Positions 2,588-3,197 of a stretch of 14,611 bases of DNA are shown in pieces (the stretch's first letter is position 1; every line of letters begins with the position of its first letter). The notes beneath the pieces are model-generated. The model was not told the origin of the DNA. It did not search any database and saw only the letters and a program-made list of their open reading frames with translations. Origin of the DNA: Escherichia coli (GTDB lineage Bacteria > Pseudomonadota > Gammaproteobacteria > Enterobacterales > Enterobacteriaceae); NCBI RefSeq assembly GCF_003334255.1, contig NZ_QOWU01000079.1, one strand, 5' to 3'. The position numbers and the translations under genes were made by a program.

Positions 2588-2706
2588 TCTATTTTCCTCT
2601 GCACAATGTATTAGTTTCTCCACAAAACAGAGAAGAACACCTGCGGTGGCAGCCGCCCGGATGGATTGGGTTATGAGCCCGTCGTCCGGTGATGCTTTTC
2701 TCTGTT

Positions 2707-2756
2707 TTGTAAAAAGAGCGGTACCAGCCGGAAGCAAGTGTACAAACTGGTACCGC
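2707..2756 (-). promoter_or_regulatory. leader hairpin (10-bp stem GCGGTACCAG/CTGGTACCGC) + U-tract overlapping a boxA-like CGCTCTTTTTACAA on the leftward transcript
   Basis: Seen on the minus strand about 120 nt upstream of rdgC. Resembles an intrinsic terminator and/or a nut-like boxB-boxA module (lambda nut boxA CGCTCTTA; rrn boxA TGCTCTTTAACAA). Confidence 0.35.
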
Positions 2757-3197
2757 CAAAGCAGTGGCTGTTGTGGTGACCGGTGCTGATCTCCGGCTTG
2801 CGGTTATTTCAGACTCTCACGGGCGTTTAATTGCCCCGCCGAACAGCTCTTTTCCGCAATAGCTGCAATGTCTTTCGCGCATCAGCCTGCGCATTCACCA
2901 CAACGCTGAGAGCACTTAGCCAGTTACGGCACCACACTTTGTCGCGGCTCCATAAATGCTCTCATCGTTGCGTCCTGGTCTCTTCCCAGGCGTCAAACCG
3001 AATCGCCACGCTGGTTAGGCGTCTAATATCCTCATTGACTTGCACATTCCGGCTACCTGGTTTGTTTGCCCGAGCAAGGAGTGGATTGTCCCCTTTAACG
3101 TCCCCAGACCGCTAACGACGCATGTGCCATACGCCGTGTTACAACCAAATTTTGTTAGTACCTTGTTTGTAGGTCTGGAAAGAAAGATAAAATGAAG

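Follow-up and report, generated by a model that had tools for sequence, protein, structure and literature searches.

What lies between the leftward early promoter pL and the first leftward gene, rdgC, of a lambdoid prophage that carries no N gene? The question is raised by positions 2588-3197 of a stretch of Escherichia coli DNA of 14,611 nucleotides (nt; contig NZ_QOWU01000079.1, assembly GCF_003334255.1), which we analysed as a whole and refer to as the window. This window spans the immunity and early region of a lambdoid prophage of the mEp460/SfV/cdtI type, and the interval is 98.4% identical to mEp460 by BLAST. An original prediction, made from the DNA letters, described this interval as a leader in which a terminator-like hairpin overlaps a boxA-like element, and offered two readings of it: an embedded small RNA (sRNA), or a cis-acting antitermination or attenuation device. 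We report that the leftward strand encodes a conserved multi-domain non-coding RNA cassette directly behind pL, each part of which is under selection at the RNA level and recurs in different combinations in unrelated phages. In the leftward direction these parts are a leader core, a long hairpin (D1), a tRNA-shaped RNA (TLS), a hairpin that runs into a series of U residues, and a second long hairpin (D1'); their coordinates refer throughout to the minus strand.

A folded, non-coding interval

The only ORFs (open reading frames) across 2588-3292 are short and start with TTG or GTG, so the interval is ORF-free in the sense originally described. Some part of it is matched in 2,837 of 5,426 complete E. 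coli genomes, and at least 80% of it in 666; among the matches listed, the near-full-length E. coli copies have no PGAP feature within it. Comparison with cdtI and phiV10 shows no codon periodicity (11, 12 and 8 mismatches at the three codon positions against cdtI; 10, 8 and 9 against phiV10), and the insertions and deletions relative to these two phages, of 1, 2, 4, 7, 10 and 13 nt, break the frame. With neither annotation nor periodicity and with frame-breaking changes, a protein-coding reading was rejected. The possibility raised with the original prediction, that homologous prophages carry a conserved protein-coding gene here, thus finds no coding signal against cdtI or phiV10 and no annotated feature among the matches listed to rest on, and the interval is neither a gene nor a decayed gene.

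Its description as hairpin-rich holds, folding being better than that of shuffled sequences on both strands (z -3.4 and -3.3). BLAST shows the interval to be a mosaic whose pieces recur separately in unrelated phages with sharp module boundaries. The search for compensatory changes across relatives that the original prediction had suggested revealed covariation in the TLS, in the leader core including its pseudoknot, in D1 and in the inner stem of the hairpin at 2757-2709. The RNA strand is the leftward one, as fixed by G-U pairs in the TLS and leader core, and the cassette is co-oriented with tRNA genes and operons in P1, P7, phiV10, SPN9TCW, mEp390 and HK620. A search of positions 2400-3400 against Rfam 15, at the gathering score and at E<=10, returned no credible match for any module.

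A tRNA-shaped RNA with a variable insert

The TLS (2770-2904), of about 135 nt, was defined by a covariance model, R1, and by covariation; the window copy scores 94.7 bits against this model (E 1.5e-23). A closing helix, GUUGUGGUG/CACCACAAC (2904-2896 with 2778-2770), is followed by AAU and then by a 4-bp hairpin, GCGC-AGGCUGAU-GCGC (2892-2877), and the structure ends with a 5-bp hairpin, GCCGG-AGAUCAGCA-CCGGU (2797-2779), the 3' strand of which is contiguous with the closing helix. The helices are of 7, 4 and 5 bp, the closing helix having a 7-bp core and measuring 7-9 bp in 178 of 212 copies. Between the two hairpins lies an unconserved variable region, 79 nt long in the window and with a median of 74 nt (range 2-199) over the 212 copies.

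Selection on the fold is evident from an alignment of 89 sequences, in which 93.8% of cells are paired, 16 of the 24 pairs are changed on both sides and none of 500 shuffles does as well. A scan in which the 4-bp stem was left free recovered GCAC/GTGC, ACGC/GCGT, GTGC/GCAC, GCTA/TAGC, GAAC/GTTC and other exchanges. The loops of the two hairpins kiss through six Watson-Crick pairs (GCUGAU with AUCAGC), and they do so in matched combinations: loop GCUGAU is accompanied in 170 copies by a T-like loop containing UCAGC or UCAGU and never by one with UCGAC, and loop GUCGAU is accompanied by UCGAC in 18 copies and never by UCAGC.

An exact 23-nt 5' signature of the TLS is present in at least 120 viral contigs and in 69 species-representative genomes, mostly of Enterobacterales, other Gammaproteobacteria or Betaproteobacteria, with a few others. 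It also appears in Martelella alba (an alphaproteobacterium), in Candidatus Magnetaquicoccus and in metagenome-assembled genomes labelled Verrucomicrobiota and Phycisphaerales; these outlying occurrences may reflect either a wider host range or contamination during binning. As regards recognised tRNA features, ARAGORN finds 0 tRNA or tmRNA genes in the window, the Rfam tRNA model has no match in 2400-3400, and the window copy has no CCA; CCAA, ACCA or GCCA stands directly 3' of the helix in 51 of the 212 copies. Many variable inserts of D1 and of the TLS at other loci (L024, L029, L041, L054, L077 and L104) hold hairpins resembling a T arm (GGTTCGAATCC, GGTTCGATTCC and similar), and the cargo may accordingly include T-loop modules or fragments derived from tRNA.

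In the literature, a full-text search found no paper containing the signature sequences, and searches on tRNA-like phage RNAs turned up no account of the cassette, its leader core, the tRNA-like fold or the kiss; a catalogue of 10,006 candidate viral RNAs may list the motif uncharacterised.

The leader core and D1

Upstream of the TLS, the leader core (2972-3139) is an RNA of about 170 nt with a pseudoknot, delimited in an alignment of 31 copies. It opens with a 5' hairpin, H1 (3136-3116), and continues with a long-range helix, H2 (3111-3105 with 3059-3050), that encloses a variable insert. An invariant 19-mer, GGUAGCCGGAAUGUGCAAG (3057-3039), follows and is found exactly in at least 120 IMG/VR contigs. 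In the pseudoknot, the loop AACC of a hairpin at 3022-3008 pairs with GGUU at about 2996-2999; the partner is GGUG elsewhere, and the GGUU of the window is compensated by a change of the loop from CACC to AACC. The last element is a hairpin, P0, CCUGG-GAAGAGA-CCAGG (2990-2974). Over 31 diverse copies 98.8% of cells are paired and 11 pairs are changed on both sides, a pairing score reached by none of 500 shuffles and falling to about 30-45% paired when the register is slid; invariant U-G pairs set the strand. The leader core is more conserved than the cargo that follows it and contains an invariant unpaired 11-mer.

D1 (2901-2970) is a long imperfect hairpin, recognised as an inverted repeat, CAACGAUGAGAGCAUUUA...UAAGUGCUCUCAGCGUUG, with a variable tip (-37.5 kcal/mol, z -4.6). 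At other loci the stem has a wholly different sequence yet remains complementary, between fixed CAAC and GUUG ends, and its 3' end coincides exactly with the start of the cargo RNA. We also considered a sponge for CsrA; just three CGGA(A/G) motifs are present, in conserved loops (the P0 loop, the invariant 19-mer and the T-like loop), which is too few for the idea to be more than a passing thought.

A mobile cassette with exchangeable cargo

Among 130 distinct contexts of the leader core, tRNA-Arg(UCU) lies downstream in 29, mostly at +146, and the TLS signature in 31, at +143 to +261. Further cargos begin with GUUGUGGU and end with CCACAAC. In phiV10 the tRNA starts within one base of the start of the window TLS, after the same D1, and whether the cargo is the TLS or the tRNA, the same trailer follows it: a GGCGG...CCGCC hairpin with its T-run and then a hairpin of the D1' type ending in GUUGUGGAGAA.

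The modules also travel separately. Upstream of the TLS, the leader core is present in 32 of 252 copies (13%) and D1 in 102 of 252, and some copies have their own promoter immediately upstream. The leader core lies between trnI and ban in P1, P7 and SJ46, and directly after the repressor gene in mEp390. In HK620 and HK629 the TLS belongs to the late leader, where it is flanked by pR' and the holin gene (in HK620, between pR'/qut and the late terminator), and it is also found in T1-like phages of Klebsiella, in N4-like phages and in Ackermannviridae. P1 (L007; AF234173) has two TLS copies, at 3707-3809 and 3424-3548 (69 and 35 bits), between tRNA-Thr and tciA. Both lie on the strand of the ban operon, the minus strand of that locus, and are antisense to the annotated ORFs upl and plp, calls that may be spurious or may overlap RNA genes.

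The hairpin, D1' and the boxA question

The hairpin to which the original prediction had drawn attention is real: a perfect inverted repeat, GCGGUACCAG/CUGGUACCGC, at 2756-2747 and 2727-2718 forms the 10-bp stem that had been described, together with the U-tract. The full stem has 13 bp (-21.2 kcal/mol, z -3.6) and leads into CUUUUUAC, so that the terminator-like element as a whole, defined by fold and conservation, reads GGCGGUACCAG...CUGGUACCGC and then UCUUUUUAC (2709-2757). As expected of an intrinsic terminator, it has a stable G+C-rich stem with a U-run directly after it, and it is kept in relatives; a consensus terminator scan did not list it, because its loop is 11-19 nt long. The outer stem GGCGG/CCGCC and the T-run are retained, and the inner stem and loop differ, in relatives that include cassettes with tRNA-Arg cargos; the outer stem is fixed in all cassettes (2747-2757 in the window; loci L340, L317, L346, L332 and L335). 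A hairpin with a T-run lies within 200 nt downstream of 103 of 209 TLS copies, compared with 30 of 209 control segments. Since the same hairpin and T-run follow either cargo, the hairpin is a fixed part of a mobile cassette and not a local oddity.

In the outer stem, the string GGCGGUAC is like the ops element no further than position 7. An ops/RfaH site was rejected by inspection, the hairpin's GGCGGTAC matching ops GGCGGTAGnnTG only to position 7 and having C at position 8; in the ops hairpin, G8 pairs with C3.

Beyond the U-run comes D1' (2617-2715), an inverted repeat ACAAAACAGAGAAAAGC...GUUCUUCUCUGUUUUGU (2710-2694 with 2638-2622) with tip GGGCUCAUAACCCAA, folding at -44.8 kcal/mol (z -6.05); it follows the hairpin and T-run in the cassettes of other phages as well. 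The mosaic boundary with the first gene is at about 2611, and D1' is followed by GGAGAAACUAA and then by the ribosome-binding site and ATG of rdgC (2600-2585).

The boxA-like string at 2720-2707, which the original prediction had considered meaningful, does not stand up to the same comparison. The pattern YGCTCTTW occurs once in the window, with 1.73 occurrences expected by chance, and the 13-mer of the rrn boxA, UGCUCUUUAACAA, fails to match the site even when 3 mismatches are allowed. Conservation in relatives had been named as a check, and in those that keep the base of the hairpin and the T-run the position shows CGCCCTTTTT, CGTCCTTTTT or CGTCATTTTT, the site reading CGCCCUUUUU, CGUCCUUUUU or CGUCAUUUUU. 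The resemblance is coincidental and arises because a stem ending in CGC meets a U-run, which is simply the anatomy of a terminator. Neither does the interval look like a lambda-type nut site: there is no N-like ORF, the boxA-like string is at chance level, and the D1' hairpin follows in place of boxB.

Genuine boxA sites were encountered in other phages. An rrn-type boxA, mostly the exact GCTCTTTAACAA and otherwise with one mismatch, stands 57-66 nt before the TLS at loci L130, L352, L409, L187 and L371. At four further loci (L334, L256, L291 and L301) an rrn-type boxA, exact GCTCTTTAACAA in three and differing at one position in the fourth, takes the place of D1 and the cargo 124-130 nt beyond the 19-mer of the leader core; a hairpin precedes it. 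Nus-type sites are thus associated with modules of the cassette in other phages, and not in the window.

Relation to STnc100 and PasD

The window holds a known sRNA, STnc100 (Rfam RF02076, 143.2 bits), on the plus strand at 12336-12541, downstream of the Q-like gene in the late leader. Model R1 of the TLS can be aligned over its full length (all 126 positions) to 12364-12489 with 21.1 bits (E 2e-4); this is its sole other match in the window with E <0.1, the remaining ones having E >= 0.18. Because STnc100 is the only other credible match of R1 in the window, we conclude that the TLS is related, divergently, to the prophage sRNAs STnc100 and PasD, and that STnc100 is its distant paralogue. In SfII, an STnc100-like version occupies the position of the TLS. 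In the reverse direction, the Rfam model of STnc100 misses the TLS even at E<=10 (cmscan of 2400-3400). STnc100 has been aligned with PasD in a 2026 preprint (10.64898/2026.05.13.724894). PasD is an Hfq-stabilised sRNA, validated by Northern blotting, with many RIL-seq partners (PMC8550237), and STnc100 is without an assigned function (PMC12370729).

Genomic setting

Direct repeats of an operator-like family, TTGCGnnnTATGCAA, at 3198-3212 and 3222-3236 resemble OL. The putative pL (minus strand) would have its -35 hexamer, TTGCAT, at 3212-3207, a 17-nt spacer, its -10 hexamer, TATCTT, at 3189-3184, and a start near 3177; the hexamers were picked by eye, so that this position is conjectural, and a consensus promoter scan of the window does not list it. 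To the left, rdgC begins with an ATG at 2587, and to the right lie a gene for a cI-like S24 repressor (3293-3985, minus strand) and cro (4083-4343). As the original prediction had observed, there is no nutR-like gap after cro, which ends at 4343 and overlaps the start of a CII-like gene at 4336; a gene for a Rha-type regulator comes next. The absence of N likewise stands, there being no N-like ORF among those of the window, and a gene for a Q-like antiterminator is present at 11372-11779.

The 382-residue ORF called as "Rha" (4890-6038) contains, on the plus strand, Rfam matches to isrK (5250-5326) and to the C4 antisense RNA (5351-5438), and its PHROG matches start only at residues 61-105. 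The true start of the gene is probably downstream of the called one and preceded by an RNA immunity module of the c4/isrK type.

Discussion

We favour, at a little better than even confidence, a reading in which pL produces an immediate-early RNA that partly ends at 2711 and is cut to a stable sRNA acting via its variable region, read-through serving for the expression of rdgC and the genes beyond. On derepression, pL would first make an RNA of roughly 470 nt, and a share of the transcripts would stop at the hairpin and U-run. Cleavage within the long D1 hairpin and/or at the tRNA-like junction, for instance by RNase III, RNase P or RNase E, would release a stable sRNA of roughly 150-200 nt, the scaffold of which would protect a variable region acting in trans, as does the Hfq-dependent PasD. 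Polymerases that read through would continue into rdgC and other early-left genes, and the hairpin might in this manner set the ratio of sRNA to mRNA with no need for N, nut or boxA. Rho would presumably find the leader transcript a poor substrate, as G outnumbers C in it and pairing is extensive as far as the TLS. Of the two readings offered originally, the embedded sRNA is strongly supported, by the covarying modules, the relation to STnc100/PasD and the hairpin at the end of the RNA. The boxA/Nus device falls, its element being unconserved and at chance level, and simple attenuation, as partial termination at the hairpin, would be a plausible mode of action.

Several observations weigh against the processed sRNA that we favour. 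It does not account for the leader core, which is the most conserved part of the cassette. That the 23-nt TLS signature hardly varies between Beta- and Gammaproteobacteria is more readily explained if it binds some conserved host machine than if the TLS is simply a base-pairing sRNA. Dependence on Hfq is extrapolated from PasD and STnc100, which the Rfam model fails to link to the TLS. As a terminator the hairpin is atypical, in that its loop of 11-19 nt and its 5 consecutive U residues fall outside the usual short loop (3-8 nt) and run of at least 6-8 U. Furthermore, the outer stem is conserved in sequence and does not covary, which hints at another, sequence-specific role.

What else might the cassette be? 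A role for the TLS primarily as a tRNA mimic, a decoy or hijacker of a host tRNA-handling factor (proposed targets are RNase P, the CCA-adding enzyme, a synthetase, EF-Tu and a tRNA-targeting defence nuclease), with the cassette as an immediate-early vehicle for either the mimic or tRNA-Arg(UCU), is unlikely in our estimation, and it would explain the extreme invariance of the signature, exact across two bacterial classes, better than the sRNA does. The helix lengths of 7, 4 and 5 bp, the unbroken run of the 3' hairpin into the closing helix as in tRNA, the replacement of the D/T-loop contact by six covarying Watson-Crick pairs, the presence of tRNA-Arg(UCU) in the same slot between the same flanks (29 as against 31 of 130 core contexts), the P1 ban operon, where two TLS copies and tRNA genes stand in tandem, and an (N)CCA right after the helix in about a quarter of copies all suit such a role. 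It is less easily squared with an RNA that ARAGORN and the Rfam tRNA model fail to recognise, that has 2-199 nt of variable sequence in place of an anticodon arm, and that lacks the T-loop and D-loop consensus and, in the window, the CCA; the register is also offset by one base from the phiV10 tRNA, and the shared junction could equally reflect recombination at a GTTGTGG microhomology. In its broadest form the idea is that the TLS is an unrecognised pan-proteobacterial class of phage RNA, a tRNA mimic directed against a conserved host enzyme or a tRNA-targeting defence and swappable with tRNA-Arg(UCU) in a mobile cassette, the pseudoknotted core of which represents a new class of cis-acting RNA; we advance this tentatively, as something possible that the balance of evidence does not favour. 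On the plainer view, the element is a broader variant of the STnc100/PasD type in a previously undescribed cassette. Alternatively, the leader core might itself be a cis-acting RNA that modifies RNA polymerase, by antitermination or anti-pausing in the manner of the put sites reported in the immunity region of HK022 (PMC9378689), and so carries it through the hairpin and U-run and later terminators. The phage has no N and the core lies ahead of a terminator-like hairpin, at the extreme 5' end of early transcripts (several phages have a -10-like hexamer about 7 nt before H1), directly after the repressor/operator region in the window and in mEp390; its conservation beyond that of the cargo and its invariant unpaired 11-mer would also be explained. 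We nevertheless consider it improbable. There is no second copy in the pR operon, comparison of the leader with the rest of the window giving only 15-nt matches that resemble ribosome-binding sites, and the HK022 immunity region (27600-31600) shows no similarity (best blastn E 0.84), with the limit that inverted repeats did not locate the put sites themselves there. The core has about 170 nt and a pseudoknot where put has two stem-loops of about 70 nt (PMC9378689). It stands mid-operon in P1, just before ban, and upstream of only 13% of TLS copies, and in four relatives it is followed by a hairpin and an rrn-type boxA, which would be redundant if the core itself antiterminated.

Two further explanations fare much worse. 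That the interval is functionless debris, a decayed tRNA cassette or N-type gene joined to recombination linkers, is very improbable: its mosaic structure with sharp boundaries, the real tRNA in the same slot in other phages and the fixed CAAC, GUUGUGG and CCACAAC ends, which could act as recombination joints, are all compatible with it, but compensatory changes keep every helix across hundreds of copies, blocks of sequence stay unchanged from one bacterial class to another, no coding signal is present, and relatives are expressed, abundant sRNAs (PMC8550237). We give still less credence to the model of the original prediction in which the boxA-like CGCUCUUUUUACAA is bound by NusB/NusE, alone or together with other Nus factors, in competition with the hairpin, giving antitermination by host factors only. 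The string does hold the rrn boxA core GCUCUUU, a variant one base shorter, GCUCUUUUACAA, is found in a typical nut-like context at another locus, and genuine boxA sites are common beside these modules in other phages. Against this, the match is no more frequent than chance predicts, relatives that retain the hairpin and T-run have GCCCUUU, GUCCUUU or GUCAUUU as the core, and in the window the CGC belongs to the base of the stem and the rest to the U-run, with no boxB-like hairpin adjoining.

If the reading of a processed leader sRNA is true, N-less lambdoid phages of the SfV/mEp460/cdtI/Stx2c type open their early-left programme with a large structured RNA and not with a regulatory protein. 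The leader core, the long hairpins with fixed ends and variable stems, and the tRNA-shaped scaffold with its variable insert would then be building blocks, absent from Rfam, that phages of many Proteobacteria share, temperate and lytic alike. For STnc100 and PasD, which are abundant sRNAs from prophages in pathogenic E. coli, this would provide a structural rationale, a much larger family and a link to phage tRNA cassettes. Our findings also flag likely mis-annotations, among them P1 upl and plp and various "hypothetical proteins" in mEp460, cdtI and SfII. The exchange of a tRNA for the TLS makes the function directly testable.

Comparison with known systems

One parallel is HK022 put, which acts on terminators by way of the zinc-binding domain of the RNA polymerase beta' subunit and shares with the window an N-less lambdoid phage, a structured RNA that opens the pL transcript and terminators downstream. 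The cassette differs from it in size and fold, lacks a partner copy behind pR and does not resemble the HK022 immunity region in sequence. The late leader of lambda, pR'-6S RNA-tR', is likewise a promoter-proximal, untranslated and terminated leader RNA before an operon, and HK620 and HK629 carry the TLS in exactly such a leader; the cassette of the window lies instead behind pL, is far larger, and consists of independently mobile modules, with no Q/qut-type factor known. The C4 antisense RNA of P1/P7 and DicF resemble the cassette in being small structured RNAs within a polycistronic early transcript, and the window also has isrK/C4, but they bear no relation to the interval in sequence or structure and Rfam finds neither within it.

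With tRNA and its mimics (the tRNA-like domain of tmRNA, the Y RNA YrlA and the viral tRNA-like structures) the TLS has in common a four-way junction with helices of 7, 4 and 5 bp, a coaxial stack of the acceptor/T type and a contact between D and T loops, and with tRNA itself its location in tRNA operons and its exchangeability with tRNA-Arg(UCU). It departs from tRNA in having no anticodon arm and no T- or D-loop consensus, in its Watson-Crick kiss, in carrying CCA in a minority of copies and in being missed by tRNA finders.

The closest likeness is to STnc100 and PasD. They have the same order of parts, a closing helix ...UGGUG/CACCA..., AAU, a 5' hairpin, a variable middle with multiple hairpins and a 3' hairpin that continues directly into the closing helix; a hairpin with a U-run comes next, and they too are carried in promoter-proximal leaders of lambdoid prophages. 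In comparison with STnc100 the TLS has other loop sequences and a kiss of six bp, and sits behind pL rather than Q/pR'. Its host range is far wider than that of STnc100/PasD, extending to lytic T1-like and N4-like phages, to Ackermannviridae phages and to Betaproteobacteria.

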